Shown here piece by piece: positions 2,578 to 21,189 of a DNA stretch of 43,041 bases (position 1 is the first letter of the stretch; every line of letters starts with the position of its first letter). The position numbers were made by a program, and so were the translations under genes. The stretch is from a virus (taxonomy: Duplodnaviria; Heunggongvirae; Uroviricota; Caudoviricetes), in IMG/VR virus record IMGVR_UViG_2744054964_000002, positions 1-43,041 of that record; one strand, 5' to 3'. The notes beneath the pieces are model-generated. The model worked only from the letters and a program-made list of their open reading frames with translations, was not told where the DNA came from and ran no database searches.

Positions 2578-2732
2578 GCTGCCACCTGCTTTTCGTTAAG
2601 TTCTTCAGCCAGTCGTTGCGCCTTCAGTGGGTTGGTAACGACATTACCCCACGGCAGCAACCATCCGTTTTTCTCTTTGAGCCAGGGAAGGCGCAGTGTG
2701 CCAACCCTGATGTCGTCGTGAGCGTGAGTCAT
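2574..2732 (-). CDS. Small hypothetical protein (52 aa), not in ORF track
   Basis: Hand-translated: MTHAHDDIRVGTLRLPWLKEKNGWLLPWGNVVTNPLKAQRLAEELNEKQVAA; its stop overlaps the dam start (ATGA) and its ATG overlaps the stop of the upstream 142-aa ORF (ATGA), which argues for real translational coupling. Confidence 0.3.
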   Translation of the reverse strand: MTHAHDDIRVGTLRLPWLKEKNGWLLPWGNVVTNPLKAQRLAEELNEKQVAA

Positions 2733-3771: not shown

Positions 3772-4529
3772 TCAGCCTCCGTCTCTGCGACATTGACAGG
3801 TTCGGCGTTGTCGACAGCAAGACTCATGTCATACATGCGTCGTTTCTCAACTGCGCCGATCACCTGTTTCTCTTCGGCGCTCAGCGCCACCCAGAACTCC
3901 TGATACTTAACGGTTCCAAGGCGCGCGGCGGACTCACCTTTTGCGATCAGTTCCGGGCGGCGGCTATCTGATTCATGGCCCGCATGAACCTCTGCCGTTG
4001 TTCCTTCAATTACTCGCTCTGCCTCGTCCTGGTCGAAGATGCCAGCGAAACCAAAGGCCAGACGCGCGCACTGGATCAGCGTCTTGTGGCGAAGCATGCG
4101 GGTAGGGTGGGACTGCCATGGCTGAGTGTTGCGTTTGCACTCTCCCATGTACTCGGTGACGATGGTCGGGTGCTTACGGTCTTTGCGGTAAATCTTGCAG
4201 GTACACGCGCCTTCCTCCTTGTCGTAAGAGAACTCCATGCCGTCAAACTGAGGATGCTCGTTGATAATGCGAGCCCATCCATCAACGCCGACGACCGGGA
4301 CAATCCCGCCTTTATCTGGGAATGCGTAAATCTCTTTGGTCCATGGGTTCAGGCCATACTGGTTGGCGACGATCAGCAGGGCTGTAAACTGCTCGTCCGT
4401 GACGTTGCCACCTTTGAACGCTGTATTCTTCAGCGTATTCATCAGGTCTGTACCGGCATCCATGCCGAGGCGTGCGGCCAGTTTCCCGGCCATGGTGGAA
4501 AGTGCAGTACTCATTGTTAAATCCCTCAA
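3768..4529 (-). CDS. recT: RecT-family single-strand annealing recombinase
   Basis: 253-aa ORF; core segment LLIVANQYGLNPWTKEIYAF...GVDGWARI is typical of RecT/Bet-like annealing proteins; paired with the YqaJ exonuclease. Confidence 0.9.
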   Translation of the reverse strand: MRDLTMSTALSTMAGKLAARLGMDAGTDLMNTLKNTAFKGGNVTDEQFTALLIVANQYGLNPWTKEIYAFPDKGGIVPVVGVDGWARIINEHPQFDGMEFSYDKEEGACTCKIYRKDRKHPTIVTEYMGECKRNTQPWQSHPTRMLRHKTLIQCARLAFGFAGIFDQDEAERVIEGTTAEVHAGHESDSRRPELIAKGESAARLGTVKYQEFWVALSAEEKQVIGAVEKRRMYDMSLAVDNAEPVNVAETEAE

Positions 4530-4532
4530 AAA

Positions 4533-4814
4533 TTAAAACGGGCAGGTTGGATGAAGGCGATCCCACTCTTCTTCGGCGCGGTCGTAACAGATGCGTGTGA
4601 CATAGTCGTTATAGGCTTCCTCTGCCTTTTCACCGACTAGTGCCATTTGCGCTTCTTTTGGGAGAAACAGGCTACTCATTTGCAGAGCATATTTCGGGAA
4701 CATGGCGATCAGTTCTTTCGCCCGGTCGTCGATCCACTTCTCTTTCTCGTCGGTGAGTTGCTGCTCAACCCAGCGCCGATCTTCGATGCGGTCGTAAGTG
4801 AGGTATGCGTTCAT
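4533..4814 (-). CDS. Hypothetical protein (93 aa)
   Basis: ORF in the leftward operon between the coiled-coil gene and recT; acidic; no recognised motif. Confidence 0.45.
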   Translation of the reverse strand: MNAYLTYDRIEDRRWVEQQLTDEKEKWIDDRAKELIAMFPKYALQMSSLFLPKEAQMALVGEKAEEAYNDYVTRICYDRAEEEWDRLHPTCPF

Positions 4815-4821
4815 GGTTGCC

Positions 4822-5793
4822 TCAGTAGTGGATTTTCGCGCAGGGGATCAGGTCATCCTTCAGAGCGGTGAGCACTTCGATAGCCTGTTCGCGGGTTAAG
4901 CTTGTGTGGCTGGTGAGCGCGTTAACGATGTTGGTGCCGACCGTCTTGCGGTGCTTCACGTCGGCTTCACGTTTTGCCTGCTCATCGGCGATGCGCTTCT
5001 CTTCGGCCAGACGTTTCTCTTCTGCCTGTTTTGCCTTGAGGCGCTCAGCTTCCACTGCCGCGGCTTTTTCGCGTTCTGCCCGGGCTTCTGCTTCCTGCTT
5101 CTCGCGAGCTGCACGCTGTTCCGCTTCGACGCGCTGGCGTTCAGCCAGCTCTGCACGTGCTTTCTCTTCAGCTTCACGGCGCGCTGCGGCTTCAATCTCT
5201 GCTTTGTGCATCGCTTCGGCATCGCGGCGGGCTTGTTCTGCCGCTTCCTGCTTCAGTCGTTCGTCACGTTCACGCTGAGCCTGTTCTGCCTGGCGGCGCT
5301 GCTCTTCGCGGTCACGGTCAAAATCCTTGTTCATCAGTAGAGCCATTTCGTGGTCCGCTTCGAACTTGGCAGCCAGCTCCTGATCAAACCTGATGTTCAT
5401 CTCCAGCGCTTCGGCGTGCATCGCGTTCATGGCTTCTTCAGCCTTAATGCGTTCCTGCTCGGCTTCCCATTCGGTGAGTGGGCGGCGGGTCGCATCGCGC
5501 AGCTCGTCGCAGGCATCAACGAATCGCTTAATTTCGGCCTCAGCCGGACGCACAGCCTCTTTCAGGCGCTTCAGGTACTCACGGCCCGGCTTTTCGATTG
5601 CCGTCTTGCTGCGGGACACCTGCGCTGCCAGAGAGGCAACACGGTCACGGCCTTTCTTCGTGGACAGGTCCGGCACTTCGTTTACAGCCTGGCGGATTTG
5701 CTCAAGGTACGCGTCAAGGCCGCCCGCTACGTAAAGCACTGGGGCCTGTTCCGGCTTGATTTCGATGACAGTTAAGTCCGTTACTTCGCTCAT
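4822..5793 (-). CDS. Coiled-coil protein with extreme E/A/R/K-rich low-complexity central region
   Basis: 323-aa ORF; central ~150 residues are near-repetitive (EAERLKAKQAEEKRLAEEKRIADEQAKREAD...); the many antisense ORFs in the track here are by-products of this bias. Confidence 0.6.
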   Translation of the reverse strand: MSEVTDLTVIEIKPEQAPVLYVAGGLDAYLEQIRQAVNEVPDLSTKKGRDRVASLAAQVSRSKTAIEKPGREYLKRLKEAVRPAEAEIKRFVDACDELRDATRRPLTEWEAEQERIKAEEAMNAMHAEALEMNIRFDQELAAKFEADHEMALLMNKDFDRDREEQRRQAEQAQRERDERLKQEAAEQARRDAEAMHKAEIEAAARREAEEKARAELAERQRVEAEQRAAREKQEAEARAEREKAAAVEAERLKAKQAEEKRLAEEKRIADEQAKREADVKHRKTVGTNIVNALTSHTSLTREQAIEVLTALKDDLIPCAKIHY

Positions 5794-5863
5794 GGTTTCT
5801 CCTGAAATTTGGATGTGCAGAACTCGCCCGCGTAATGCCAGGCCGATCGGTTGAATAGGGTGG

Positions 5864-6061
5864 TTACTGCTGCGCGATGGATTTCGCCGGGAACTCGCCG
5901 TTGCGGATGATGCTTTCTACCGGCCAGCACTCAGCTGACACTTTCTGCTCTGTAGCTGCCAGGCTGCATTCCTGCTGGCTGTCGTAAACGCCGAGAATGA
6001 CATCCTGATAATCACCGTTGGTCATTGCCACGGTCAGGACGAGTGCGAATAAAGTTTCCAT
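5864..6061 (-). CDS. Small hypothetical protein (65 aa from the internal ATG)
   Basis: Track ORF 5864-6115 begins with GTG; an internal ATG at 6061 (METLFALVLTVAMTNGDY...) overlaps the stop of the upstream small ORF (TGATG), suggesting coupled translation. Hydrophobic N-terminus. Confidence 0.35.
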   Translation of the reverse strand: METLFALVLTVAMTNGDYQDVILGVYDSQQECSLAATEQKVSAECWPVESIIRNGEFPAKSIAQQ

Positions 6062-6189
6062 CAGTGAAGAGTCCTCCCGATGGCGACGGCGTAAAGGCGT
6101 TTTGCTTCTTCCCACGCCGGAGCATTGCGATGGAGCACCGCGAACGACGCGAGCCGTTGGGCCTCTCTGATCTGCTGCTGGTTTACCAT
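6061..6189 (-). CDS. Small hypothetical protein (42 aa), not in ORF track
   Basis: Hand-translated MVNQQQIREAQRLASFAVLHRNAPAWEEAKRLYAVAIGRTLH; preceded by AGGAAA RBS; stop overlaps the next start. Confidence 0.3.
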   Translation of the reverse strand: MVNQQQIREAQRLASFAVLHRNAPAWEEAKRLYAVAIGRTLH

Positions 6190-6324
6190 GATTTCCTCTT
6201 GGCCTTATCGCGGCGAACGGAACGGTTAATACAAGACTTCAACGCATTTATTCAGTGTTTCATTGGGCGGTGGATGGCCGCCGGTTGTCATAACTTGAGT
6301 CACTCGTAAATAACTCCAGGTATG

Positions 6325-6348
6325 AAAAAGGCCGCCTACCTGGCAGCC
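6325..6348 (-). terminator. Candidate rho-independent terminator (minus strand)
   Basis: Minus-strand RNA GGCUGCC-AGGUA-GGCGGCC (7-bp stem with one G-U pair) followed by UUUUUC; lies about 75 nt downstream of the 6427-6768 ORF. Confidence 0.4.
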
Positions 6349-6426
6349 TCAACTTGAATGAGTGCCGGGATGTTTAGCCACGCCCGGCGCGTGCTCTCCT
6401 GCTATTCCCCAACAGCAAGAAATCGC

Positions 6427-6768
6427 TTACTCTTTAATTTCCCCAGCAGTAGAAAGGATATATTCATGCAAACCATGCGGACCGTGTGCCCTGACTGCGG
6501 AAGTGAGATGTTCAACCAGCCCGATGATTTTGACTTTGAGACAAATTTCACCGGCGTCAGTTGTGCTGACTGTGGTCGAGAAATCACTAAGGACGATGTT
6601 GTCAATCAGGCCACGGACACGGTCAAAAAACAGATCGACGACATGCTCAGGAATTCCCTGAAAGGAACTGGCTGGAAGTTCAAGTAACTTTAAAAGCTCC
6701 CCGGTCTGAGTAAGTACCTCGCTGGCGTCTACGTTAAGCAGTAGTGGCGCCGTTTTTTTATCTGCCAT
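6427..6768 (-). CDS. Hypothetical protein (113 aa); competes with the antisense ORF 6466-6687
   Basis: ATG at 6766-6768 preceded by GAGGAG RBS (5-nt spacer); same orientation as the surrounding leftward operon; followed by the candidate terminator at 6325-6348. No recognisable domain. Confidence 0.4.
   Translation of the reverse strand: MADKKTAPLLLNVDASEVLTQTGELLKLLELPASSFQGIPEHVVDLFFDRVRGLIDNIVLSDFSTTVSTTDAGEICLKVKIIGLVEHLTSAVRAHGPHGLHEYILSTAGEIKE
6466..6687 (+). CDS. Hypothetical small zinc-ribbon protein (73 aa); antisense to 6427-6768
   Basis: Internal ATG at 6466 with AAGGA RBS; paired CxxCG motifs (CPDCG ... CADCG, 19 residues apart) typical of a zinc ribbon; third-position GC looks higher than in the opposing frame (hand count). 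Confidence 0.35.
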   Translation: MQTMRTVCPDCGSEMFNQPDDFDFETNFTGVSCADCGREITKDDVVNQATDTVKKQIDDMLRNSLKGTGWKFK

Positions 6769-7313
6769 ACACACTCCTCTTTTTGTTTACCGTCAGCCCC
6801 TCGCAAAGAGCTGCTGGTAAACTTCGCCACACTCTCGCAGTGGCCGCGCACATGCCCTTGAGACCTTGTCGCTCATCGCCGCTCATAACCGGTGCGCGTC
6901 TGGCGTTCGCGCTGCTTTACCGGAGCTTGTTTTGATATAAGAACCTTGACCCATCACTACACAGGCTCGCCATTCGGCGACTCAGGGCGGCATCATTACT
7001 GCTGCATTGCCTTTAGGCTGCGGTCTGTCCGCTTTAGTTCTTCATTGGAATCACTCCTCTAAGTTGAATCAGCGCCCCATCATCGGAGCGCTTCAAATTG
7101 AGTGACTTATCAGCTCATCGCAGCGTGGTCCTCTACACCTACCGTACGCATACGGACTCAGTGCTTACCTCGATCCCATCGGGTGCCATTTCTTTTTGCC
7201 AGGAGAGCTACGGCTTGCCTGTCACTCAGTCTGATTTGTTAAAGAAGCAGGCGACTTGCTGTCCGCCGCTGGCTAACTTCGCTCAGCTGTCGATGTTTCG
7301 TTTCGATGAGCTG

Positions 7314-7342
7314 ATTATTAACTAATGGTTATTTTCAGTCAA
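7314..7342 (-). promoter_or_regulatory. Candidate leftward sigma70 promoter (possible pL)
   Basis: On the minus strand TTGACT (7342-7337), 16-17-nt spacer, then TAATAA/AATAAT (7320-7314); embedded in an AT-rich TGGTTA repeat region. Hexamer match only. Confidence 0.3.
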
Positions 7343-7460
7343 TAACCATTGGTTAATTATTTTGCCGTTGGTTATTAAGGTTATGATTTATTGGTTAATT
7401 TAGTTCTGTTATGGATTTGTGCAGTACGTGCTATGCTGCAAAAAACATCAGGAGGTAGCT

Positions 7461-7667
7461 ATGGAACGAGATGAACGTGCAGATGAACGAATAGCCTTCA
7501 TGGCTGGAGAGGTTGGGTGCGTAGTGTTCGAGCTGGTTTATAACGGAATTGAAATCAATAAGGACAACATTGTGGGATTTCTGGAAGGGAAGCGCAAAGC
7601 CGTAGGAAACGTGATCCATAAGGGGATGCTACGGGATGCGGCTGAGATGGTGCGGAAGGGCAAATAA
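7461..7667 (+). CDS. Hypothetical protein (68 aa)
   Basis: ATG at 7461 preceded by AGGAGG RBS and an extended -10 like element (TGcTATGCT, 7429-7437); convergent with the cI-adjacent cassette. Confidence 0.4.
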   Translation: MERDERADERIAFMAGEVGCVVFELVYNGIEINKDNIVGFLEGKRKAVGNVIHKGMLRDAAEMVRKGK

Positions 7668-7686
7668 AAACCCGGCGCTGGCCGGG
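7662..7686 (-). terminator. Rho-independent terminator ending the cI-adjacent cassette
   Basis: Perfect 6-bp GC stem CCCGGC-GCUG-GCCGGG (7671-7686) followed on the minus strand by UUUUUAUUU, starting 8 nt after the stop of the 7695-8045 gene. Confidence 0.6.
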
Positions 7687-7694
7687 TGATAGCG

Positions 7695-8045
7695 CTATTT
7701 CAAAACAAGTCCGTTTAAAGCATCAAGAATTTTAGAAACATAATTACCGAATACATAAACACAAAAAGCAAACACAACTGATAGAATGGCAGAAGAAGCT
7801 TTAAGTGTTGTCTTCATGGATTTTACTCCATTTTCGATTTCACTCAGCCTTGAGTCGATGCTCTTAATGTCTGATTTAATCTCAGCAATATCTCGCTTAA
7901 TGTATTCTACATCGGATTCTAAGCGTGCAACTCTGTATTGCATGTCATCGCCTCCGCCATTACCGTTGCCATGCCTCAAAGTATGCACGTTGAATTCTTC
8001 GTTAGCAACTGGTTGGCTTCGTTTGAGATATGCTGAATTTGCCAT
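7695..8045 (-). CDS. Coiled-coil protein with C-terminal transmembrane helix (XhlA-like architecture); cassette gene B
   Basis: 116-aa ORF; Gly-rich N-terminus (HGNGNGGGDD), heptad-like coiled coil (RLESDVEYIKRDIAEIKSDIKSIDSRLSEIENGVKSMK), hydrophobic C-terminal segment (AILSVVFAFCVYVFGNYV). Start is 1 nt after the stop of gene A. AT-rich by eye. Confidence 0.6.
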   Translation of the reverse strand: MANSAYLKRSQPVANEEFNVHTLRHGNGNGGGDDMQYRVARLESDVEYIKRDIAEIKSDIKSIDSRLSEIENGVKSMKTTLKASSAILSVVFAFCVYVFGNYVSKILDALNGLVLK

Positions 8046-8046
8046 G

Positions 8047-8472
8047 TCAGACTTTCCATTCTTTTGATAAGTAGAAATAACACTCTGAATCGTGAACTAA
8101 TCTACTTTTATCTTTATCATCAATGACATGAAGTGACAGTGTTACCTTGTAAACACCCTCTTCTTTAACAAGGATGTTCATCAGAGACATATTTTCAATG
8201 CTTACTGACTCACTTCCAGAGGTCGTGCCAGCCACAATAGGGTCTGATTGCAATGACTGACCACTACCGAAATCAATTCTCTGGTCGCCAAAAAATAGGT
8301 CTACATCAACACGATAGTTAACTTTAGTTTTAATAATTAGCCCAAAGGAAACGTCAATGCTGATTTTCCCTGAGTGCTCATCTGGCTTTATCCATGGCTG
8401 TGGATAATTTAAGGAGCGCGATATTTTACCGGGAAATATCTGGGATACATATAAAAATGAAATCTTTTCCAT
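8047..8472 (-). CDS. Hypothetical protein (141 aa); cassette gene A
   Basis: ORF with GAGGA RBS 6 nt upstream of the ATG, 72 bp downstream of the cI stop; AT-rich codon usage by eye; no recognised domain. Confidence 0.6.
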   Translation of the reverse strand: MEKISFLYVSQIFPGKISRSLNYPQPWIKPDEHSGKISIDVSFGLIIKTKVNYRVDVDLFFGDQRIDFGSGQSLQSDPIVAGTTSGSESVSIENMSLMNILVKEEGVYKVTLSLHVIDDKDKSRLVHDSECYFYLSKEWKV

Positions 8473-8544
8473 CGCTTATCCTCGTTAGCAAGCTATTTGT
8501 TACCAGATCTTCCCATGATCACTAACCCATCAGCATCTTCGTCT

Positions 8545-9321
8545 CTACAGCAGCACCGAGTACCAGAAGAGACGGCCAATTATCTCGACATCATCAATAT
8601 CAGCCTCTTCGTCTGGGTAGGAGTCGTTGTTGTAACTGCGGATGATCAGCTTCCCACCTGGCTTACGATACAGTTGTTTAATGCGCTTGAGTTGACCATT
8701 CCCGCCATCTGTCTGACCAATGGCATACAGTTTCCCATCAACTATGCGTTTGTTGTTCGTATCGACGGCTACAGTCGTACCATCCGGTATCACAGGTTCC
8801 ATGCTGTCGCCAGTAGCAGGGAAACACAGGATGCCAGACCCATCTGTGTTAGCTCCAACGCGGCGGAGGGTTGCCTTTGAGAACCTGAGCTTAAAACCAT
8901 TGTGATCTTCGCTGTGTACGCGTCCATCGCCACACGCAAATTCAATATCCTTAAGAAACGGCACTTCAACCTCGTCAGCAGGAAGCGGTGTGTTTTTATC
9001 CCAGGCGTCAACAGTTCCCCATTCAGATTCTGGAGGGATAGATGACTCCCTACGCAGTTCAGGTTCGGGATCATTCCTTCCGTATTCAAGCCACTCAGGC
9101 CGTACCCCAAGCCAGCGGCTAAGGGCAAGGATATTGGTTTGGTCTGGTATCGCTGATGCGTTAAGCCATTTCCAGATCCCGGGCTCAGATACAGTAATTC
9201 CTTGGGACTTCATAGCCTCTCTGATCCTACCAGCCTGCCCACGACCACCAACGCCAGCATCAAGCAATGCAGCGCGAAGTCTTTTCGAGAATTCTTCTTT
9301 TAAATCGTCTTTTTTAACCAT
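8545..9321 (-). CDS. cI: CI-like prophage repressor (N-terminal HTH, C-terminal LexA/S24-type autocleavage domain)
   Basis: 258-aa ORF; C-terminal domain contains the S24 serine motif (ATGDSMEP) and downstream lysine (KRIVDGKLYAIG); divergent from a cro-like gene across an operator-bearing intergenic region. Confidence 0.9.
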   Translation of the reverse strand: MVKKDDLKEEFSKRLRAALLDAGVGGRGQAGRIREAMKSQGITVSEPGIWKWLNASAIPDQTNILALSRWLGVRPEWLEYGRNDPEPELRRESSIPPESEWGTVDAWDKNTPLPADEVEVPFLKDIEFACGDGRVHSEDHNGFKLRFSKATLRRVGANTDGSGILCFPATGDSMEPVIPDGTTVAVDTNNKRIVDGKLYAIGQTDGGNGQLKRIKQLYRKPGGKLIIRSYNNDSYPDEEADIDDVEIIGRLFWYSVLL

Positions 9322-9405
9322 TCGTTAATTATCAATTAGAGTTGACATAACTGTCAGTTAAGATATAACCTTAACTCGTAGTTAATATAGTTAACGGAAA
9401 ACACT
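9322..9405. promoter_or_regulatory. OR-like operator/promoter region between cI and cro
   Basis: Palindromic TTAACT/AGTTAA half-site pairs (TAACTGTCAGTTA at 9348-9360; TTAACTCGTAGTTAA at 9371-9385; GTTAAC at 9391-9396) overlapping a strong rightward promoter: -35 TTGACA (9342-9347), 16-nt spacer, -10 TATAAC (9364-9369). Confidence 0.65.
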
Positions 9406-9651
9406 ATGAACCCAATGCAATTTGCAATCGAAGCTGTAGGCGGTCAAACCGCTGCTGCTCGCCTGTGTGGCCTATCGAACGTTGCTATTCACAAGTGGGT
9501 GAAGAACGCGGCGCTGCCTCGTACTGAGTACACAGAGAAAACCAACTATTCGCAGCTTTTGGCTGACGCATCAAATGGGCAGTTTACGGCTGAATGGCTC
9601 CGTCAAGCAGCTAACCCTGACCGAATTAAACAAGATTCACATGCCGCCTGA
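9406..9651 (+). CDS. cro: Cro-like HTH regulator
   Basis: 81-aa ORF, first rightward gene after the operators; HTH-like segment TAAARLCGLSNVAIHKWVKNAALP. Confidence 0.7.
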   Translation: MNPMQFAIEAVGGQTAAARLCGLSNVAIHKWVKNAALPRTEYTEKTNYSQLLADASNGQFTAEWLRQAANPDRIKQDSHAA

Positions 9652-9691
9652 CCGGCGGCAATAACCAATTAAATCAGAGGAAGTATCGCAA

Positions 9692-9913
9692 ATGGAAACC
9701 TTAACGACACGCAACAAAGCGGAGGCGCGACGAATTGAGAGCTGGGTGCAGCGGCAAATCGCAGATCTTGGGACAACCAGGATCGCCGAAGTAGCTGGCG
9801 TCAACAAATCAACCGTAAGCCGGTGGCGGGAGAGCCTGGTGCCGAACATGTCGCTGCTGCTGGCCATCCTGATTTCGAACAGGGATGGAGCGAAGGGAGA
9901 TTTTGAAGCATGA
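9692..9913 (+). CDS. cII: CII-like transcriptional activator
   Basis: 73-aa ORF; RRIESWVQRQIADLGTTRIAEVAGVNKSTVSRWRESLVPNMSLLLAIL closely parallels lambda CII (as recalled: ALRIESALLNKIAMLGTEKTAEAVGVDKSQISRWKRDWIPKFSMLLAVL). Confidence 0.7.
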   Translation: METLTTRNKAEARRIESWVQRQIADLGTTRIAEVAGVNKSTVSRWRESLVPNMSLLLAILISNRDGAKGDFEA

Positions 9914-10140
9914 ACGTAGAAAGGGCGAAAGCCGCGGTGCTGGAACACCAACGGCTTTCAGGTGCAAAAACGACAGTAGTTGCAGGAGGAATAATGGCAA
10001 AAAATCCACGCTATTACCATACCGCTGTACATAAAAACATAACCCGCGACCGCTTCATCCGCTCGGTTAATCCGATTGTGGCAGAGAAGATGCGCGCCAT
10101 CCTGGAAGAACTGAAACGTAAGGAGAGTGGCCGTGGGTAA
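9910..10140 (+). CDS. Hypothetical protein (76 aa)
   Basis: ORF between the cII-like gene and the replication initiator; basic; no recognised motif. Confidence 0.45.
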   Translation: MNVERAKAAVLEHQRLSGAKTTVVAGGIMAKNPRYYHTAVHKNITRDRFIRSVNPIVAEKMRAILEELKRKESGRG

Positions 10141-11032
10141 CGTATCCAATTTAGCCGAAGCCAGAGAGGCCAGAAGGCTCCAGAAACCGCGCACGAATGA
10201 CGGTAAGGGGTTTGCCTTGCTGCACCGTAAAATTATGGATGTGCCGTTCTACAAGGACGCTGAGGCGGCTCATTTATGGGTTCACCTGCTCCTGCGCGCT
10301 AATCATGAACAGACACTGGTATCGACTGATGTCGGCGATGTGATCTGCGAGCGCGGAGAGTTCATTACCGGGCGAAACACGCTGGCAATGGAAACGGGTT
10401 TGACCGCTGATCGCGTTAAATCACTGCTCCGTAAATTCCAGAACCTGGGCATGATCACCACCAAATCGAACAACCGTTTTACTGTTCTAAAAGTGGTCAA
10501 ATATGACGAATATCAGTCAAATTTTTGTCCAGCCGATGTCCAGCCGGTGTCCAGCGCAAACGCAGTTATATCAATGCCTGTGGAGGTGGAGTGTCCAGCC
10601 GATGTCCAGCCAGTGTCCACAGATAACAATATATTAAATAACTTACTACCTAACGGTAGTAAGTATGTCGCAAATGACCAGAAACCCGCTGAAGAGAAAA
10701 AGTCTCGTTTGTCATGCGATGAAGTGTGGCAATGCCTGAAAGACGAACTGCCTGAAGCCCGGGGATGGAGATGCCTCACTGATGAGCGACGCAATCTGAT
10801 CCGCACATTCTGGGGTAAGGCTAACAAAATTGCCCGCAACCTGGACGGCAAGCCGATGGACATGGACGGTTTCAGAAGTTATCTGCGTTACATCGCTCAG
10901 AACTGCCGCTGGATGCTTGAAGACCGACCAGACCAGAAATCCGGGAAGACCTGGCGCCGCATGAAATTCGATAAGTTCCTGACCGAAAAGCTCTACATCG
11001 AAGTGCGCGAGGGGGATCGTGATGACCGCTGA
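10127..11032 (+). CDS. Replication initiator, lambda O-like (origin-binding), with the origin inside the gene
   Basis: 301-aa ORF (GTG start at 10127 or 10133 after AGGAGA); N-terminal region FALLHRKIMDVPFYKD...ERGEFITGRNTLAMETGL resembles phage replication protein O N-domain; contains the iteron array; followed with overlap by a DnaB-type helicase gene. Confidence 0.7.
   Translation: MAVGNVSNLAEAREARRLQKPRTNDGKGFALLHRKIMDVPFYKDAEAAHLWVHLLLRANHEQTLVSTDVGDVICERGEFITGRNTLAMETGLTADRVKSLLRKFQNLGMITTKSNNRFTVLKVVKYDEYQSNFCPADVQPVSSANAVISMPVEVECPADVQPVSTDNNILNNLLPNGSKYVANDQKPAEEKKSRLSCDEVWQCLKDELPEARGWRCLTDERRNLIRTFWGKANKIARNLDGKPMDMDGFRSYLRYIAQNCRWMLEDRPDQKSGKTWRRMKFDKFLTEKLYIEVREGDRDDR
10526..10664 (+). 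repeat. Candidate origin of replication: two clusters of three 11-bp-phased TGTCCAGCC iterons, AT-rich tract and 10-bp inverted repeat
   Basis: TGTCCAGCCG at 10526, 10537, 10548 and again at 10593, 10604, 10615 (11-bp period), then AT-rich ATAACAATATATTAAATA and perfect inverted repeat ACTTACTACC-TAAC-GGTAGTAAGT (10641-10664). Confidence 0.65.
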
Positions 11033-12455
11033 TTTCATGGCTGTACCACAAAACCTCGAAGCAGAGCAGAGCGTTATCGGTGGCCTGCTGCTGGATGATG
11101 ACAACAGCGAGCGAGTCCAGAAGGTTCTGGCGATGCTCAAGCCTGAGTCGTTCTACAGCCGACCTCACCAGCTGATCTTTGCAGAGATGCGCCAGATGTT
11201 CCGCGACAACAAGCCAGTCGATGGTCTGACATTGTTCGACGCGCTTGAAGGCAAAGGGCTCGCGGAGCAGGTAGGTGGCTTTGCTTACCTGGCGGAGATA
11301 GCCAAGAACACTCCCAGCGCTGCAAACATCGTAGCTTACGCAGCATCAGTCCGGGAAGCCGCAATGGAGCGCTACGGTATCAACCGCCTGACCGAAGCTA
11401 CTGAACTGCTGTATTCCCGCAACGGCATGAGCGCTACGCAGAAGTACGAGGCCATTCAGGGTATTTTCACCCAGCTCGCAGACCATTCAAAAACCGGAAG
11501 TCGTCGTGGGTTGCGGTCTTTCGGCGAGGTTATGGATGACTGGGTAGCGGATCTGGAGAAACGGTTTGACCCTTCAGGCGAACAGCGCGGCATGAGTACC
11601 GGTATCCCGTCACTAGACCGGCTGCTGGCGCCGAAAGGTCTGGTTAAAGGCTCTCTGTTCGTGATTGGCGCAAGGCCAAAGATGGGCAAGACAACGCTGT
11701 ACGGGCAGATGGCGATCAACTGCGCGGTTCGTGAGAAAAAGCCAGCGCTGATGTTCAGCCTCGAAATGCCTGGCGACCAGATCCTTGAAAAGCTGGTTGG
11801 TCAGAAGTCCGGCATTAACCCGAGCATTTTTTACATGCCCGCCACGGATGACGCCGATGACCAGTACCAGGGCGACTACGACGGCGACTTTAAGAAGGCG
11901 ATAGCAACAGCCGGGCGGCTGAGTGAAATCGACATGCTGTACATCGACGACACCCCGGGCCTGTCACTGGCGCACATTGTTAGCGAAAGCCGCCGAATCA
12001 AACGCGAGAAGGGCTGCGTAGGCATGATTTTGGTTGACTACCTGACGCTGATGACCGCCGAAAAGGCCGACCGTAATGACCTGGCCTACGGGATGATCAC
12101 CAAAGGGTTGAAGAACCTCGCCAAAGAGCTTGGCTGCGTCGTCGTGCTGCTGACCCAGCTCAACCGCGAACTGGAGAAGCGAGTGAATAAACGCCCGTTG
12201 CCGAGTGATTCCCGCGACACAGGACAGATTGAGCAGGACTGCGACTACTGGGTTGGTATCCACCGGGAAGGTGCTTTCGATGACAGCGTGCCGCCGGGCG
12301 AAACCGAGTTAATCCTGCGACTCAACCGCCACGGCAGTACCGGCACGGTGTATTGCAATCAGATTAACGGGGCAATTTACGACACAGACCAGCAGGCCGC
12401 CGCCGCAGAACGCCGCGGGCGCGAGCAGCAGCCGAAAAAGAAAGGGGGCTTCTGA
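11019..12455 (+). CDS. Replicative DNA helicase, DnaB family
   Basis: 478-aa ORF; N-terminal EAEQSVIGGLLLD (DnaB N-domain), Walker A GARPKMGKTT, downstream DnaB-like motifs (MFSLEM, ILVDYLTLM, VLLTQLNR). Confidence 0.9.
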   Translation: MMTADFMAVPQNLEAEQSVIGGLLLDDDNSERVQKVLAMLKPESFYSRPHQLIFAEMRQMFRDNKPVDGLTLFDALEGKGLAEQVGGFAYLAEIAKNTPSAANIVAYAASVREAAMERYGINRLTEATELLYSRNGMSATQKYEAIQGIFTQLADHSKTGSRRGLRSFGEVMDDWVADLEKRFDPSGEQRGMSTGIPSLDRLLAPKGLVKGSLFVIGARPKMGKTTLYGQMAINCAVREKKPALMFSLEMPGDQILEKLVGQKSGINPSIFYMPATDDADDQYQGDYDGDFKKAIATAGRLSEIDMLYIDDTPGLSLAHIVSESRRIKREKGCVGMILVDYLTLMTAEKADRNDLAYGMITKGLKNLAKELGCVVVLLTQLNRELEKRVNKRPLPSDSRDTGQIEQDCDYWVGIHREGAFDDSVPPGETELILRLNRHGSTGTVYCNQINGAIYDTDQQAAAAERRGREQQPKKKGGF

Positions 12456-12754
12456 TGAAAGGCAAACAGGCAATTCTGCGTTATCTCGAAACGCATCGGA
12501 CCTTCACCGCGAAGGATGTGGCCACAGAGTGCGGCATGACCATCAACTGCATCACGAAGAACGCTATCGATCTGGAGCGGGCCCGCAAGATTGTCCGGGT
12601 GAGCAAGGTCTGGCGAACGGTGACTTATCGCCTGGCGACGCCGGAAGAGCAGGACGGCACCGCGCGCAGCTGCACCAACGGAATATTTCAGGAGTGCCGC
12701 AACAGCCCGGCGATGAAACGAATTTTGATGGTTTGGGGGAGGGTAGGGGTATGA
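12455..12754 (+). CDS. Hypothetical protein (99 aa)
   Basis: ORF start overlaps the helicase stop (TGATG); no recognised motif. Confidence 0.5.
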   Translation: MKGKQAILRYLETHRTFTAKDVATECGMTINCITKNAIDLERARKIVRVSKVWRTVTYRLATPEEQDGTARSCTNGIFQECRNSPAMKRILMVWGRVGV

Positions 12755-13170
12755 GCAACAAATACGAAGATCTGATTAAAAATGCCAGGGTGAATGCCGA
12801 ATGTGGTGAGCACATGTCGCCTGAAGAGGTTACGACTTTGCTTAACGTGGTTGAAACCACATTCGCGGCGCTGGCTGCGGAGAATGAGTGGCTGAAGGAG
12901 TGGAGCCCTAATCCGCATAGCGCCTCGATTTTTGAGGCTATCGAGAAAGCCGAAGCGCTCATGGATGACGGAATGCCAGAACTGGCGATGATCAAGGCGT
13001 TCGAAATTCTCAAGATGAAGCGAACCCCGGCCACCGACGATTTCCTGGCTGAAGTGCGGGCTCAGGGTGTGGAGATGTTGGCGGAACATTTATCCGGAAT
13101 GAATATCAGCGCCAGCGAAAACAGCGTTCGCGAGTTCGCCACTCAGCTTCGCGAAGGAGTGCAGTCATGA
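12751..13170 (+). CDS. Hypothetical protein (139 aa)
   Basis: Internal ATG at 12751 of track ORF 12529-13170, preceded by GGGGTAGGGG and overlapping the upstream stop (ATGA); the upstream part of the track ORF is an out-of-frame overlap with the previous gene. Confidence 0.5.
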   Translation: MSNKYEDLIKNARVNAECGEHMSPEEVTTLLNVVETTFAALAAENEWLKEWSPNPHSASIFEAIEKAEALMDDGMPELAMIKAFEILKMKRTPATDDFLAEVRAQGVEMLAEHLSGMNISASENSVREFATQLREGVQS

Positions 13171-13427
13171 GCATTCTGGACATTCTAAACACTGGTCTCG
13201 CTCTGATGGGGTGGTTATTCATCATGTTCAAAACGGGCCAGTGGTTTATCTCCATTGCGCTAAAACAGTGGGATACGCGTAGAAAGCTATCTCGTAGACA
13301 GAAGGCAGTAAACGAATTTTACGATGCGTTTGACCTGTCCAGCATCGAACCAGGAACAACGGTGCGCCTGGCGACTAAAGGCGATCTGACAATCATGATG
13401 TATCGCACAGAAGGGGTCGCCCAATGA
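13167..13427 (+). CDS. Hypothetical small membrane protein (86 aa)
   Basis: N-terminal hydrophobic helix (ILNTGLALMGWLFIMF); ATGA overlap with flanking genes. Confidence 0.5.
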   Translation: MSILDILNTGLALMGWLFIMFKTGQWFISIALKQWDTRRKLSRRQKAVNEFYDAFDLSSIEPGTTVRLATKGDLTIMMYRTEGVAQ

Positions 13428-13843
13428 GCAACATCAACAAACAGGAGTTGCGCAGAACATCCGATCGCGACTGGTTTGAGGATTGGTTTAAGCGAGAATT
13501 CCATCCAGATAAGACAGGCCCATATATCAAAGACCAGCTGTTCTTTGCTGTACTGGCTGCAAGAGCGCCGCTGCTGGATGAGCTGGAAGCCGCAGAGAAG
13601 CGGATTGCAGAGCTGGAGGCACGGGAAGTGAAATTGCCTAATCCTCATGCTCACCTCATCTGGATTCAGGCAGGCCATGCCCCTGATGACTATTGGGATG
13701 ATGTTGCCGTTTCTCATAGCGAAAAGGATAAGTGCTGCGACGGTTCAGATCGCTATCCGGTTTATACTCTCTGGGAAATCAAAGAGGCACTATCTGCTAT
13801 TGGCATCAACATCGCCGCAGCCGGTAAAGGAGAGGACTCATGA
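13424..13843 (+). CDS. Hypothetical protein (139 aa)
   Basis: ORF with ATGA coupling on both sides; no recognised motif. Confidence 0.5.
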   Translation: MSNINKQELRRTSDRDWFEDWFKREFHPDKTGPYIKDQLFFAVLAARAPLLDELEAAEKRIAELEAREVKLPNPHAHLIWIQAGHAPDDYWDDVAVSHSEKDKCCDGSDRYPVYTLWEIKEALSAIGINIAAAGKGEDS

Positions 13844-14598
13844 GCACTATTGCCCGAGAATTCACCAAAGAGCAGTTACAGCAAATTATCGAAACTGACC
13901 ACGTTCAATGCGGTGAGGCTTCGGCGCTGGCGCGTATCGCGCTGGCATCGCTCGAAGCGGAGCCTGTGGCGTGGCTACTGTCAGGAGGCGGCGCAAAAAA
14001 CAACGTCAGCTTCGATAGTGGCAATGCTTATGCCGACCCGCTGCGAGAAGTAACGCCGCTTTACACCGCCCCTCCAGCGCCGGTATCTGTGCCTGATGAG
14101 ATGGAAATGGATGATGACTTTGACAGCGCGTTTGAGCATGGAAAAGCAGTCGGCTGGAACGCCTGCCGCGCCGCCATGCTTCAGGGTGCCGAACCTGTAA
14201 ACCAGAACGATGAGTTACCGCTGGACTATCTGCAAGGCCACAAAGACGGGCTGGAGTGGTCGGCACAACTGGCAGAAGCCAATCATCCGCAAACAGGTGA
14301 CTGGTTGTACGATGACCCAATCGAGCTTGCTAGGGCGATTCGCAAAGGTCCGGATATGCCTACAGCTCAGGATGGCAACTCTCCGGTAACTCCAGATGGT
14401 TGGATTCCGGTAAGCGAGCGGATGCCAAATGATAAAGACTTTGTATGGTGTTGGGGATATGTCTCTGGGTGGACGGAATCAGATGGCTTTGAAGCTTACT
14501 ACGACGCAACTAGAAACAAATGGTGGACCATAGATGACGAAACGGTTCGAAAGGTAACACACTGGATGCCACTTCCAGCAGCACCTCTGTGGGAATGA
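13840..14598 (+). CDS. Hypothetical protein with C-terminal DUF551-like domain
   Basis: 252-aa ORF; C-terminal GWIPVSERMPNDKDFVWCWGY...WWTIDDETVRKVTHWMPLPAAP matches the Trp-rich DUF551 pattern common in lambdoid nin regions. Confidence 0.55.
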   Translation: MSTIAREFTKEQLQQIIETDHVQCGEASALARIALASLEAEPVAWLLSGGGAKNNVSFDSGNAYADPLREVTPLYTAPPAPVSVPDEMEMDDDFDSAFEHGKAVGWNACRAAMLQGAEPVNQNDELPLDYLQGHKDGLEWSAQLAEANHPQTGDWLYDDPIELARAIRKGPDMPTAQDGNSPVTPDGWIPVSERMPNDKDFVWCWGYVSGWTESDGFEAYYDATRNKWWTIDDETVRKVTHWMPLPAAPLWE

Positions 14599-14659
14599 TG
14601 TATAATCCATCTCAATTTATTTAGAGAATTTACTATCACGTATAATGGGAATCGAGTAA

Positions 14660-14944
14660 ATGAGATGGATTTTAGCAATGGCGTTAGTTATGCCAATTTC
14701 AACTTCAATTGCAAAAAACAATGACTCATTTGATTACAAAAGAAAAACAGAGTCAGTTTGCTTTGACCCATCCAATAAAGAAAAGCAAGATTTATGTGAA
14801 AAAATAGTTAAGTCAATGCTGTTGAATGCCGCCTTTGCTGGTTACTCAGAGGCGGCATGTACTGCTAAAATTGTAAAAGATAAACAACGGTGTAAAGCAA
14901 CAGAAGAAGAATACCAAGAATTAATTAGATTCAGCATGCCATAA
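14660..14944 (+). CDS. Small secreted Cys-containing protein (94 aa), AT-rich moron
   Basis: N-terminal signal-peptide-like MRWILAMALVMPISTSIA; four Cys; low GC by eye; two TATAAT hexamers upstream (14605-14610, 14641-14646). Confidence 0.5.
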   Translation: MRWILAMALVMPISTSIAKNNDSFDYKRKTESVCFDPSNKEKQDLCEKIVKSMLLNAAFAGYSEAACTAKIVKDKQRCKATEEEYQELIRFSMP

Positions 14945-15122
14945 ATTGATTTTCCAGAATCAACCCTCCATAATCATGTCATCGGAGCCTGAACAACTCC
15001 GGTGACTTCTGCGCATTTAAGGGGACTTAAATGCGACCACAATCTGAACTCCTCACCTTGTCACAGATGCAGAAATGCACCTGCGATTTTCTGCATTCTG
15101 CGTTACCTCTCGGAGGTGGCGT

Positions 15123-15572
15123 ATGAAGCAGCACTACTGCATCGTTAACGACACCGTTAAAGACAACCTCATCGCGTACATTCGCACCCTACCGGTAAAC
15201 CCTCGTGCGCCAATGGTGGTCGAGGCTCGGGAAGAGACCCGCACCGACAAGCAAAATCGTTTGATGTGGCCGCTGCTGAAAGACCTGTCTGACCAGGTTG
15301 TCTGGCACGGCGAGAAGTTGACCCGCGAAGAGTGGAAGGACCTCATCACCGTTCTGGTGAATCAGACCCAGGACCAGGAACAGAAATCCGCGCCGGGCAT
15401 CAACGGCGGCCGCGTTTATTTCGGCGTCCGCACATCCAAATCCAGCAAGCGTTACATGGTCGATGTGATCGAGGCGATTTACTGGTTCGGTACCGACCGC
15501 GGCGTGAAGTTCTCCGAAGCATCCAATAAGCGCATCGCCTGGGCGCAAGAGTGGAGGACTTCCCGTGGGTAA
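15123..15572 (+). CDS. ninB: NinB (Orf-family recombination mediator)
   Basis: Internal ATG at 15123 after GGAGGTGG RBS; DKQNRLMWPLLKDLSDQVVWHGEKLTREEWKDLI...GVKFSEASNKRIAWAQEWR aligns by eye with lambda NinB. Confidence 0.85.
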   Translation: MKQHYCIVNDTVKDNLIAYIRTLPVNPRAPMVVEAREETRTDKQNRLMWPLLKDLSDQVVWHGEKLTREEWKDLITVLVNQTQDQEQKSAPGINGGRVYFGVRTSKSSKRYMVDVIEAIYWFGTDRGVKFSEASNKRIAWAQEWRTSRG

Positions 15573-15735
15573 TCCTCTCGCACGCGTCATCACAAACGAA
15601 ATCTTTCGCGTTCCGGCGCGCCGCCAGCGTAAGCCCGCGGTTAAGCCGTCCGACATCCCGACTTTCAAGGACTACACCGCCAGTCTGGTGGATCAGAAAT
15701 GGCTGCGCCTCGCAGCGAGGAGAAAATCCGCATGA
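15565..15735 (+). CDS. NinE-like small protein (56 aa), not in ORF track
   Basis: GTG start after GGAGGA; translation [56 protein letters not shown] resembles lambda NinE as recalled; its stop overlaps the phosphatase ATG. Confidence 0.45.
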
Positions 15736-16400
15736 GCATGTATCAACGCATTAATGGCGCTGACTGGCGCCATATCTTCGTCGTCGGGGATCTGCATGGG
15801 TGCTACACGCTGCTGATGAATGAGCTCGAAAAAGTTTCGTTCGACCCTGCGCGTGATTTGCTGATCTCGGTTGGTGACCTTGTTGACCGCGGCGCGGAAA
15901 ACGTCGAGTGCCTGGATCTGATTACTATGTCGTGGTTCAGGGCAGTGCGCGGTAACCATGAGCAGATGATGGTTGATGGGCTTTCAGAGCATGGAAACGT
16001 CAATCACTGGCTGGTAAACGGTGGCGGTTGGTTCTTCAATCTCGACTATGACAAAGAGGTGCTGGCTAAGGCTCTGGTTCACAAGGCAGCTGAGTTACCA
16101 CTCATCATCGAGCTGGTTACCTCCGATCGGAAAATCGTAATTTGCCACGCTGACTACCCGCATAACGAATATGCGTTCGACAAGCCGGTCCCGAAAGACA
16201 TGGTCATCTGGAATCGTGAGCGGGTTAGCGACGCTCAGGGCGGCATTGTCTCGCCGATAGCCGGTGCTGATCTGTTTATCTTCGGCCACACCCCTGCGCG
16301 CCATCCCCTGAAGTATGCCAACCAGATGTACATCGACACAGGAGCGGTGTTTTGCGGAAACCTCACGCTGGTTCAGGTGCAAGGTGGTGACCATGAGTAA
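15732..16400 (+). CDS. Lambda-type Ser/Thr protein phosphatase (NinI-like metallophosphoesterase)
   Basis: 222-aa ORF from ATG 15732; metallophosphatase motifs GDLHGC, GDLVDRG, GNHE; same size and position as lambda PPase. Confidence 0.9.
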
Positions 16401-16677
16401 AACCTACCGCAGCAAGAAGTGGCTCGCCGCAGTCGGCCAGATTGAGCAATGCGTCCTTTGCGGAGCGTGGGGCGTACAGGTAGCACACCGCAATGAAGGT
16501 AAGGGAATTGGCATGAAGACAGACGACTGCGCCACCGCCGCTATCTGTGTCACCTGCCATTCAGAGATTGATAACGGGAAGGGGCTTAGCCGTGACGAGC
16601 GCCGCCAGTTAATGGATCGCGCCATCGTCCTGACCATTATTCAGATTGCCCGTCGTGGCTTGGTGGTGCCTGCATGA
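16393..16677 (+). CDS. DUF1364-like Cys-rich nin-region protein
   Basis: 94-aa ORF from ATG 16393 (ATGA overlap with the phosphatase); [20 protein letters not shown]...[11 protein letters not shown] has the paired-Cys pattern of DUF1364-type phage proteins (from memory). Confidence 0.55.
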
Positions 16678-17033
16678 AAATCTACGACATCACACCAATC
16701 GGCAAGCCTCGCATGACCCGCGCGGATAAGTGGAAGCAGCGTCCACCTGTAATGCGTTACCGCGCTTTTTGCGATGAGGTCCGCCTGCGCAAGTTGACCA
16801 TGCCTGAATCCGGATCACATGTGACATTCGTCCTACCAATGCCACCAAGCTGGAGTAAGAAGAAACGAGCGGAGTTCGCCGGGAAGCCCCACCAGGCCAA
16901 GCCAGACTGCGACAACATGCTGAAAGCCCTGATGGATGCGCTTTATGAGGATGATGCTCACATCTGGGATTGCCGCATCACAAAGGTCTGGGGAGAGAAG
17001 GGGCAGATCATTATTGGGGAGTGCGCGCCGTGA
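16674..17033 (+). CDS. rusA: RusA Holliday-junction resolvase
   Basis: 119-aa ORF; ITPIGKPRMTRADKW...KPDCDNMLKALMDAL matches RusA, including the catalytic Asp-containing DNxxK region. Confidence 0.9.
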   Translation: MKIYDITPIGKPRMTRADKWKQRPPVMRYRAFCDEVRLRKLTMPESGSHVTFVLPMPPSWSKKKRAEFAGKPHQAKPDCDNMLKALMDALYEDDAHIWDCRITKVWGEKGQIIIGECAP

Positions 17034-17142
17034 CCAGAGACGAGATAACCCGATACCAGGCAGAAAGCGTTAAGCGCGCCAGCCTGCCGCCAGTAGCAAA
17101 GCACAGCCAGACCAAAACCAACCAGCCACAGAAGGAAGCCGC

Positions 17143-17832
17143 ATGAACAGTCAGCAACTGGAATACGTACGTCAGCAGCTCATTGTGGCGACCGCAGACC
17201 TCAGCGGGGCGACGAAAGGGCAGCTGGTAGCTTTCGCCGAAAACGCGCAGTTCACCGCGACGGCGCGCAGCCGGGGCAGGAAGAAAATCACCGACCCGGT
17301 CACTGGTCGGAAAGTTAACCCTGACGGCCCGGCGATGAGCGGCAGCCAGTCCCGCGCAAAGGGATCATCTATCGCGCTGGTGGGGCCGGTTGAGTTTGTG
17401 ACCGCATCGTGGCGCCGCGCGGTGCTGTCGCTTGAAGACCACCAGAAAGCATGGCTTCTGTGGAACTACAGCGAGAATATCCGCTTCGAGTACCAGGTGG
17501 CGATAACTCAGTGGGCATGGGCAGAGTTCAGGGAACAGCTCGGCGCGAAGAAAGTGGCGGGCAAGACGATGGAGCGCCTGAAGAAGCTTGTCTGGCTCGC
17601 GGCTCAGGACGTGAAAGCAGAGCTGGCAGGGCGTGAGATGTACGAATATCAGGCGCTGGCGTCGCTGGTTGGCGTAACGCCAAAAAACTGGTCAGAGACC
17701 TTTACTGACCGCTGGGTTGAGATGCGCAGCATCTTCCTGCGACTGGATAGCGGGGCTTTATTGCAGGTTACGCGATCACGTTCACAACAAAAGGCGACAA
17801 ATTTAGACTCAAGTCTTGCAAAACTGGATTGA
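17143..17832 (+). CDS. Putative late-gene antiterminator (Q-like)
   Basis: 229-aa ORF located between rusA and the late promoter/terminator, as Q is in lambdoid phages; assignment by position and general resemblance, not a confident family match. Confidence 0.5.
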   Translation: MNSQQLEYVRQQLIVATADLSGATKGQLVAFAENAQFTATARSRGRKKITDPVTGRKVNPDGPAMSGSQSRAKGSSIALVGPVEFVTASWRRAVLSLEDHQKAWLLWNYSENIRFEYQVAITQWAWAEFREQLGAKKVAGKTMERLKKLVWLAAQDVKAELAGREMYEYQALASLVGVTPKNWSETFTDRWVEMRSIFLRLDSGALLQVTRSRSQQKATNLDSSLAKLD

Positions 17833-17844: not shown

Positions 17845-17897
17845 TCATGTAAATCTGATATCGTCGCCATAGCTTCGTAGGTCGACAAAGAATTAAG

Positions 17898-17922
17898 AAC
17901 CCGCCATCGAGCGGGTTTTTTG
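17898..17922 (+). terminator. Rho-independent terminator (tR'-like)
   Basis: CCCGC-CATCGA-GCGGG stem-loop followed by TTTTTTG, about 50-70 nt downstream of the candidate pR' start. Confidence 0.65.
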
Positions 17923-21127: not shown

Positions 21128-21189
21128 AGTACCCGTTATCCTTTCTATAGGATTCCAAAGGAATACCATAGGAAACCAAAGGTAACATT

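Follow-up and report, generated by a model that had tools for sequence, protein, structure and literature searches.

Where does replication start in the viral sequence of 43,041 nucleotides (nt) of IMG/VR record IMGVR_UViG_2744054964_000002 (Caudoviricetes), and which part of which protein would recognize the starting point? In this stretch, analysed over its whole length and hereafter called the window, an O-like replication initiator gene contains six short direct repeats (iterons), followed by an A+T-rich tract and a perfect inverted repeat. Judged from sequence comparison, this element is very probably the theta-type replication origin of a lambdoid prophage, located where the initiator gene encodes a linker, predicted to be disordered, that joins two domains. 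An iteron-type origin inside the O-like gene had been proposed from the letters of the window alone (the original prediction), and was supported in silico by (i) the assignment of the protein to phrog_345, (ii) the DnaB-type helicase gene that follows, (iii) the rep_origin feature of phage HK620, (iv) a layout kept in 247 loci, and (v) a link between the type of repeat and the N-terminal domain of the initiator. The features concerned are listed below, with lengths in base pairs (bp) or amino acids (aa) and with the confidence score (pLDDT) of an AlphaFold2 (AF2) model where it applies.

10133..11032 (+), O-like replication initiator gene; phrog_345; 299 aa from the probable start GTG 10133
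10244..10516 (+), region coding for the N-terminal winged-helix-like domain, the proposed iteron reader; aa ~40-130, AF2 pLDDT 70-86
10526..10558 (+), iteron cluster 1; units at 10526, 10537 and 10548; cores TGTCCAGCC, TGTCCAGCC and TGTCCAGCG
10559..10591 (+), 33-bp spacer between the clusters; constant in length, free in sequence
10592..10622 (+), iteron cluster 2; units at 10592, 10603 and 10614; cores TGTCCAGCC, TGTCCAGCC and TGTCCACAG
10623..10648 (no strand), A+T-rich tract, proposed DNA unwinding element; overlaps the start of the left arm of the inverted repeat
10641..10664 (no strand), perfect inverted repeat ACTTACTACC-TAAC-GGTAGTAAGT; 10-bp arms, 4-nt loop
10709..11029 (+), region coding for the C-terminal helical domain, the proposed helicase-recruiting module; aa ~195-300, pLDDT 75-87, phrog_24933
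11019..12455 (+), phage DnaB-family replicative helicase gene; TIGR03600 phage_DnaB, 551 bits against a cut-off of 499; Pfam DnaB and DnaB_C

Repeats, A+T-rich tract and inverted repeat in the initiator gene

The six 11-bp units share the core TGTCCAGCC. The first cluster reads TGTCCAGCC-ga-TGTCCAGCC-gg-TGTCCAGCG (10526-10556), the next core following after 35 more bases, and the second reads TGTCCAGCC-ga-TGTCCAGCC-ag-TGTCCACAG (10592-10622). Four of the six units are exact. The imperfect copies are the third units of the two clusters, with one mismatch in the first and three in the second, and the degenerate sixth unit keeps only TGTCCA and merges into the A+T-rich tract. The two clusters phased at 11 bp that the original prediction described were confirmed by reading the sequence and by Tandem Repeats Finder, which returned a period of 11 for both arrays; its count of three TGTCCAGCC repeats per cluster held for the four exact units and was slightly generous for the third ones. 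Because the clusters lie 66 bp apart, i.e., 6 x 11, all six units fall in one register. The units, repeated directly, contain no internal dyad. Exact TGTCCAGCC occurred five times in the window for 0.5 expected, a number reached in 0 of 100 shuffles. Four of these copies lie in the origin, and the fifth (24022, minus strand) is single and at chance level. The pattern TGTCCA-N5-TGTCCA-N5-TGTCCA was found in the window at the two clusters alone, with 0 expected.

Such repeats could also bind the initiator for a regulatory purpose, whether autorepression, titration or handcuffing-like control, or the exclusion of related phages, with replication truly starting elsewhere in the genome. Initiator-binding repeats also take part in copy-number control in iteron plasmids (PMC5043065), and plasmids carrying the lambda iterons inhibit phages that arrive with a replication system of the same type (PMC3349717). 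However, no second set of units was found elsewhere in the window, the copy at 24022 being the lone other exact one, and the repeats are always flanked by the palindrome and the least stable duplex of the window, as in the lambda ori. Besides, genetic work on L/P22 hybrids assigned the origin to the 18-12 region (Hilliker 1981, as cited in PMC8022706). A purely regulatory role is thus very unlikely, and the repeats are better read as part of an origin.

From the sixth unit up to the inverted repeat, the A+T-rich tract reads GATAACAATATATTAAATA. The G+C fraction is 0.275 over 10620-10659, and among duplex stretches of 20, 25 and 30 bp, the lowest stability in the window is that of 10623-10648 (rank 1 of ~43,000, nearest-neighbour energies). 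The arms of the inverted repeat, ACTTACTACC at 10641-10650 and GGTAGTAAGT at 10655-10664, are 100% complementary around the 4-nt loop TAAC. As single-stranded DNA, the hairpin has folding free energies of -8.6 and -8.7 kcal/mol on the two strands, with z-scores of -4.4 and -3.9 against shuffles. Both the A+T-rich tract after the repeats and the perfect 10-bp inverted repeat of the original prediction were thereby borne out.

Conservation of the layout and level of the constraint

The gene is near-identical to that of Enterobacter phage CobraSix (97.6% at the nucleotide level) and of Klebsiella phage Chronis (93.6%), the nearest deposited phages with the same unit allele, in which no origin is annotated. 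At the protein level, the initiator was 42-55% identical over its full length (tblastn) to the O proteins of HK620, HK630, mEp235, HK75, HK022-type Stx phages and Pantoea PA-1, and to gp18 of ST64T and ST160; identity reached 52% with HK620 O over 100% of the query (E 7e-96) and 49% with ST64T gp18. The GenBank record of HK620 carries a two-part rep_origin feature in O at the same offset as the window repeats, and a DnaB-type helicase gene also lies directly downstream in HK620, ST64T, PA-1 and HK75. In phage L, the repeats were called the likely origin (Zaworski et al., 2021; PMC8022706), and its gp18 is just 15% identical to lambda O and 25% to P22 gp18 (PMC8022706).

Species-representative genomes, IMG/VR contigs and phage records gave 275 loci, of which 247, representing 137 distinct origin segments, had a locatable N-domain motif. 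A comparison of iteron number and spacing in related phages, proposed earlier as a check on the origin, was run on this set, and the repeats were absent from none: the layout of three plus three units was kept in 247/247 loci, with unit offsets of 0, 11, 22, 66, 77 and 88 at the same place in the gene. All 247 loci also have an A+T-rich tract after the units (~15-22 bp, 9 bp in one), followed by a perfect inverted repeat with 9-10-bp arms and the 4-nt loop TAAC, TAAA or TGAC. The sixth unit is degenerate alike in every family member. The sole part of the unit that is invariant across the family is CCA, around which at least seven unit types were distinguished:

TGTCCAGCC, this window, Enterobacter/Klebsiella/Kosakonia phages and Izhakiella
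TGTCCAACGG, L, ST64T and HK75
TACCAGCAGAT, HK620
TTACCAACAGA, PA-1
GTGCCAACAGA
AATCCAA(A/C)GG
(A/G)GCCAA

The repeats also encode a repeated peptide, CPADVQPVS, which was found twice in the initiator as originally described (aa 134-142 and 156-164). The DNA repeats might be a by-product of selection on this peptide, or a neutral slippage duplication with no role at the DNA level. The peptide is duplicated exactly, and its Pro and Gln are invariant across the family. However, since 3 x 11 bp make 33 bp, i.e., 11 codons, the units of one cluster are read in three frames as unrelated residues (C-P-A, D-V-Q-P and V-S-S) and the peptide repeats only at the 22-residue period of the clusters, so that an 11-bp period cannot be derived from peptide selection. 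The invariance of Pro135, Gln139, Pro157 and Gln161 in the protein alignment follows from the invariant CCA being read in two frames. Moreover, the region coded by the repeats is predicted to be disordered (pLDDT ~30), and the peptide differs wholly between groups (VPADYQQIT, NPKEIQGKS, VPTECQQSA), with the 3+3 layout and the CCA core retained throughout. Nor would neutral duplications be expected to preserve the same spacing in 247 loci. An origin by peptide selection or slippage is therefore extremely improbable, and the repeats are most simply read as DNA sites.

A constraint on the DNA itself is also seen among close relatives (70 distinct sequences at 90% nucleotide identity or more, with 26% of the gene columns variable). 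In this set, the 9-bp cores are almost invariant, changes being found mostly at unit positions 10-11 and in the third unit, and just 2 of the 33 columns of 10622-10654 vary. The 33-bp spacer, instead, is the most variable 33-nt block of the gene (22/33 columns). This spacer, constant in length and free in sequence, suggests that geometry matters. As in lambda, the origin falls where protein-level constraint on the gene is lowest.

The inverted repeat shows another kind of conservation. It occurs in the family as 33 distinct sequences, every one with 9-10 pairs at a fixed position, and strict Watson-Crick pairing is maintained across at least 19 different stem sequences. Among 21 distinct sequences, 97.1% of the pair cells were Watson-Crick; column shuffles gave 63%, and sliding the partner gave 28-44%. 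All 10 stem pairs were changed on both sides, with 65 compensatory cells, and no one-sided G-U/G-T change was present in the 210 pair cells, the arms having been located by demanding at least 7 perfect pairs.

Such a stem and the A/T tract beside it could be an RNA-level signal, either a minus-strand intrinsic terminator of leftward antisense transcription or an mRNA hairpin affecting the translation or stability of the initiator-helicase message. In a consensus scan, the minus strand from 10664 to 10641 was indeed terminator-like (10-pair stem, 4-nt loop, tail TATTTAATAT), and compensatory changes conserve the hairpin. However, the tail is A/U-mixed with no U run, in the window and in its relatives, and a scan of 9300-12600 showed no leftward promoter-like site downstream. 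RNA stems normally tolerate G-U pairs, so that their absence from the stem favours a constraint at the DNA level (on both strands or on duplex symmetry) and disfavours an RNA hairpin. An analogous inverted repeat is found at the same position in the lambda ori, and an RNA signal would leave the iterons and their link to the N-terminal domain unexplained. We consider an RNA role unlikely, and the palindrome is taken below as a DNA element of the origin.

The palindrome is also exchanged between origins. Locus L019 has the palindrome of the window with L-type units and a C-terminal domain 52% identical to that of the window, and locus L011 has the units of the window with a different palindrome. 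From these sequences, the palindrome appears to be a mosaic module of its own. Such independent swapping speaks for a structure-specific role and makes a co-evolving phage protein that reads the sequence less likely. A co-variation of the palindrome with the C-terminal domain had been considered and was rejected on the same two loci. More tentatively, the palindrome may be an origin element that acts through its structure, whatever its sequence, in the form of a DNA hairpin or cruciform that serves helicase loading or priming. It would be a separate small module, exchanged independently of both initiator domains and shared by lambdoid replicons generally, and the six abutting units would be read by head-to-tail monomers as a one-sided array, with an opening mechanism unlike that of lambda and its dimers on palindromes. 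This combined proposal is possible, if rather doubtful.

Proposed recognition by the N-terminal domain and proposed choice of partner

The longest open reading frame of the initiator starts at GTG 10127 (301 aa). A start at GTG 10133 (299 aa) is nevertheless probable, because it stands 7 nt after the Shine-Dalgarno sequence AAGGAG (10120-10125) and because equivalent starts are annotated in CobraSix and Chronis. The protein matched phrog_345, labelled 'replication initiation O-like', end to end (5-301, E 6.5e-69). No Pfam or NCBIfam match was obtained, no Pfam domain is recorded for any of the 120 closest database homologs, and a search of the PDB sequences with the family profile gave no match. 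The AF2 model reached a mean pLDDT of 64 and was built on a shallow alignment of 18 sequences (homologs 73-97% identical), which limits its quality. According to this model, the N-terminal domain comprises a helix-turn-helix (helices 83-90 and 94-106), of which aa 94-106 would be the recognition helix, and a beta-hairpin wing at 110-123 (strands 110-115 and 118-123). Foldseek matches in the PDB were weak (best E 1.4e-2) and were all winged-helix DNA-binding proteins (CodY-C, MarR, ArsR/SmtB, CRP, TubR, AspA). Residues 131-193 (pLDDT ~30) are predicted to form a disordered linker, and the origin falls in the part of the gene that codes for it. The C-terminal domain, helical in the model over aa 195-297, bears the motif ENCRWMLEDR...DDR.

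The type of unit tracks the N-terminal domain and not the C-terminal one. This is illustrated by three natural combinations, given with their identities to the window protein:

L011, N-domain 100%, C-domain 53%, window units
L012, N-domain 90%, C-domain 45%, window units
L108, N-domain 63%, C-domain 98%, HK620 units

Within the predicted recognition helix, residue 99 is Ser in all cases with T before CCA, and Tyr when this base is A, C or G, with one exception (L028, Thr). Asp95-Arg96 goes with CCA(A/G)C(A/C), and Asn95-Lys96 with CCAACGG. The N-terminal domain of the window is closest to the Tyr99 groups (55-63%), yet it has Ser99 and TGTCCA in common with the more distant L/ST64T group (46-51%), which points to a specificity link rather than to mere shared ancestry.

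Natural hybrids separate the two halves of the protein further. One of them is encoded by locus L026 (Dryocola sp. BD626, NZ_JBINNY010000001.1, 2423-4065). Its residues 27-168 are 50% identical to the window protein, the gene contains family iterons (TGTCCAACGG), an A+T-rich tract and a palindrome, and its residues 173-316 are 62% identical to the C-terminal domain of lambda O (residues 162-299 of the latter). The next gene codes for a lambda-P homolog (49% identical), with no helicase in that place. Reverse hybrids were found in the IMG/VR contigs L253, L255 and L257, where a Pfam Phage_rep_O N-domain (E 3e-33) is joined to a window-type C-terminal domain. Two more types of N-domain, one being HTH_36 and the other having no Pfam match, stand on a window-type C-terminal domain in L264/L268 and L260/L274, which brings to at least three the other N-domain types to which this C-domain is fused. 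A DnaB-like helicase gene of ~470 aa comes next in all five of the loci checked (L253, L260, L264, L268, L274). These hybrids indicate that the N-terminal half and its repeats behave as an origin-recognition cassette and the C-terminal half as a partner-choice cassette. The domain assignment of lambda O is established and runs parallel to this division. It was also observed that the loci with other N-domains (L253, L255, L257, L260/L274, L264/L268) have their own repeated peptide or DNA in the linker.

A mechanism can be proposed from this anatomy. The N-terminal winged-helix-like domain would bind the six 11-bp units, likely as one monomer per unit placed head to tail, since the units are direct repeats. 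With two groups of three units in a single 11-bp register, the bound proteins would sit on roughly one face of the helix and could bend or wrap the DNA. The resulting nucleoprotein strain might then open the adjoining A+T-rich tract, the easiest place to melt in the 43-kb window. The C-terminal domain would bring in not a loader of the lambda-P type but the DnaB-type helicase that the phage itself encodes in the next gene. The palindrome would act at the DNA level, either as a hairpin or cruciform that forms upon unwinding and marks or stabilises the open region, or as a signal for loading or priming; no other step is as uncertain.

Several points weigh against the element being an origin that works in this manner. 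No footprint, autonomous-replication test or origin mapping was found in the literature for any family member, and both the annotation in HK620 and the statement on phage L are predictions made from sequence. No host-factor site was found in the origin by a DnaA-box scan, the two exact DnaA boxes of the window being at 8399 and 14795. The structural model is of moderate quality (mean pLDDT as above) and the fold matches are weak (E ~1e-2); the covariation between amino acids and bases comes from few independent lineages. As for the partner, the association of the C-terminal domain with the helicase is confounded by gene adjacency and may result from linkage alone; L028, with a third type of C-terminal domain, still has an adjoining DnaB-like helicase gene.

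If the assignment as an origin is correct, the origin and its specificity allele would be located for a widespread group of Enterobacter, Klebsiella, Kosakonia and Salmonella prophages, elements of the TGTCCAGCC type being common in Enterobacter and Klebsiella prophages. No origin is annotated in the deposited relatives CobraSix and Chronis, where most replication genes bear the label hypothetical. The at least seven unit types with their cognate N-domains offer natural matched pairs for the study of DNA reading by a small winged-helix domain, the natural hybrids place origin recognition in the N-terminal half of the initiator and the choice of partner in its C-terminal half, and the many compensated variants make the role of the conserved palindrome testable. 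Current understanding is not overturned. The fixed register, the covariation, the Watson-Crick-only palindrome and the two-by-two hybrids are starting points for experiments that would not surprise a specialist.

Known replication systems, neighbouring genes and minor features

On every feature that can be tested in silico, the element is a member of the family of L, ST64T, HK620, HK022, HK75 and the HK022-type Stx phages (VT2-Sakai, Stx2-86). These phages have a full-length homologous initiator with a homologous DnaB-type helicase gene next to it and, at the same offset, 3+3 units of 11 bp with a 33-bp spacer, an A+T-rich tract and a perfect inverted repeat with a 4-nt loop. The window differs by its unit, TGTCCAGCC instead of TGTCCAACGG (L/ST64T/HK75) or TACCAGCAGAT (HK620), with matching changes in the predicted recognition helix, and by the sequence of its palindrome.

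In lambda, too, the ori sits in the middle of the gene for an initiator of ~300 aa, where the DNA-binding N-domain gives way to the partner-binding C-domain. The lambda iterons (39034-39118) are followed by an A-rich A+T tract and then, ~44 bp after iteron 4, by an inverted repeat, GTCAGAGAATTC-tggc-GAATCCTCTGAC; its arms are 12 nt long and 92% complementary, and its loop has 4 nt. Natural hybrids, as seen above, exchange halves with lambda-type proteins at the linker. However, the window protein has no match to PF04492 at E<=0.01 (1e-33 to 1e-36 for lambda O and L253), and no homology to lambda O was detected, the family profile giving an hhalign probability of 0.1. The lambda-type ori-in-O match of the original prediction hence stood for the order of the parts and does not extend to homology, as there is no Phage_rep_O match either. 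Besides, six 11-bp direct repeats in the window contrast with four 18-19-bp palindromes bound by O dimers in lambda (PMC5043065), and an A+T tract of ~20 bp with one of ~40 bp. The partner in the window is a phage-encoded DnaB-type helicase, whereas in lambda it is the P loader, which hijacks host DnaB; the pairing of a lambda-type C-domain with P occurs only in the chimera L026, and the C-domain of the window differs. The element would work like the lambda ori and lies outside the lambda O/ori family. By sequence, it would be a lambda-style origin made of non-homologous parts, of a type already known as a prediction, with TGTCCAGCC as a new specificity allele.

Iteron plasmids (P1, F, pPS10, R6K, RK2) resemble the window by their helically phased direct repeats, their winged-helix initiator (predicted in the window) and an adjoining A+T unwinding element (PMC5043065). 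They differ in that their iterons are ~17-22 bp long and usually ~two helical turns apart, against abutting 11-bp units in the window, where in addition the origin is inside the initiator coding sequence and without DnaA boxes. No homology to plasmid Rep proteins (RepA, pi, TrfA) was found by Pfam, NCBIfam or PDB sequence search, and the fold matches were generic winged helix-turn-helix regulators. Finally, phage P22, compared by its published description, has the same succession of cII, an orf48-like gene, the initiator and a DnaB-like helicase, with its origin inside gene 18 (PMC8022706).

Additional searches concerned the origin itself. The sixth unit, GTGTCCACA, was considered as a DnaA box (7/9 positions) and this was dropped, other family members having CCATAAACA there. 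The conserved lambdoid pO/oop 25-mer was searched for and not found, Rfam gave no RNA family in the replication region, and a literature search by iteron sequence returned unrelated primer lists only.

The surroundings correspond to a standard lambdoid early-right operon, in the order Cro-like, CII, a small orf48/hkaW-like gene, the initiator, the helicase, which overlaps the end of the initiator gene by 14 nt, and Ren-like, with an S24-peptidase repressor gene on the opposite strand. The Ren-like exclusion protein gene (12455-12754, +; phrog_142, E 8e-34) is directly 3' of the helicase gene, the place that ren has after P in lambda. The small open reading frame that overlaps the start of the initiator (9910-10140, +) gave a weak DUF2740 match and belongs to phrog_1913, labelled 'tail protein'. 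It is the counterpart of orf48/hkaW of HK022/HK620, and the 'tail protein' label found in several RefSeq records looks misannotated. Over its first ~150 nt (10134-10285), the DNA of the initiator gene shares ~85% identity with HK620, HK022, mEp235 and many Stx phages, and the remainder of the gene is too diverged for megablast, which leaves a sharp mosaic boundary just ahead of the DNA-binding domain.

Elsewhere in the window, the only Rfam family found was the Hfq-binding small RNA isrJ (17848-17920, +; 58.7 bits against a gathering score of 37, full-length model). Two tandem repeats were recorded, one at 28943-29041 with a period of 27 bp, ~3.4 copies and the consensus GAAGATGACGAGCGCGACGATGATGCC, acidic if translated, and one at 21155-21186 with a period of 10, CCAAAGGAAA, 3.1 copies and a score of 41. 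Nine separate pieces within 1-17144, together about one quarter of the left 25 kb, match coliphages phi80 and HK225 at ~94% identity; they hold the integrase gene, recombination genes and part of the early genes. The replication module matches Enterobacter phage CobraSix instead of phi80/HK225, in line with typical lambdoid mosaicism.

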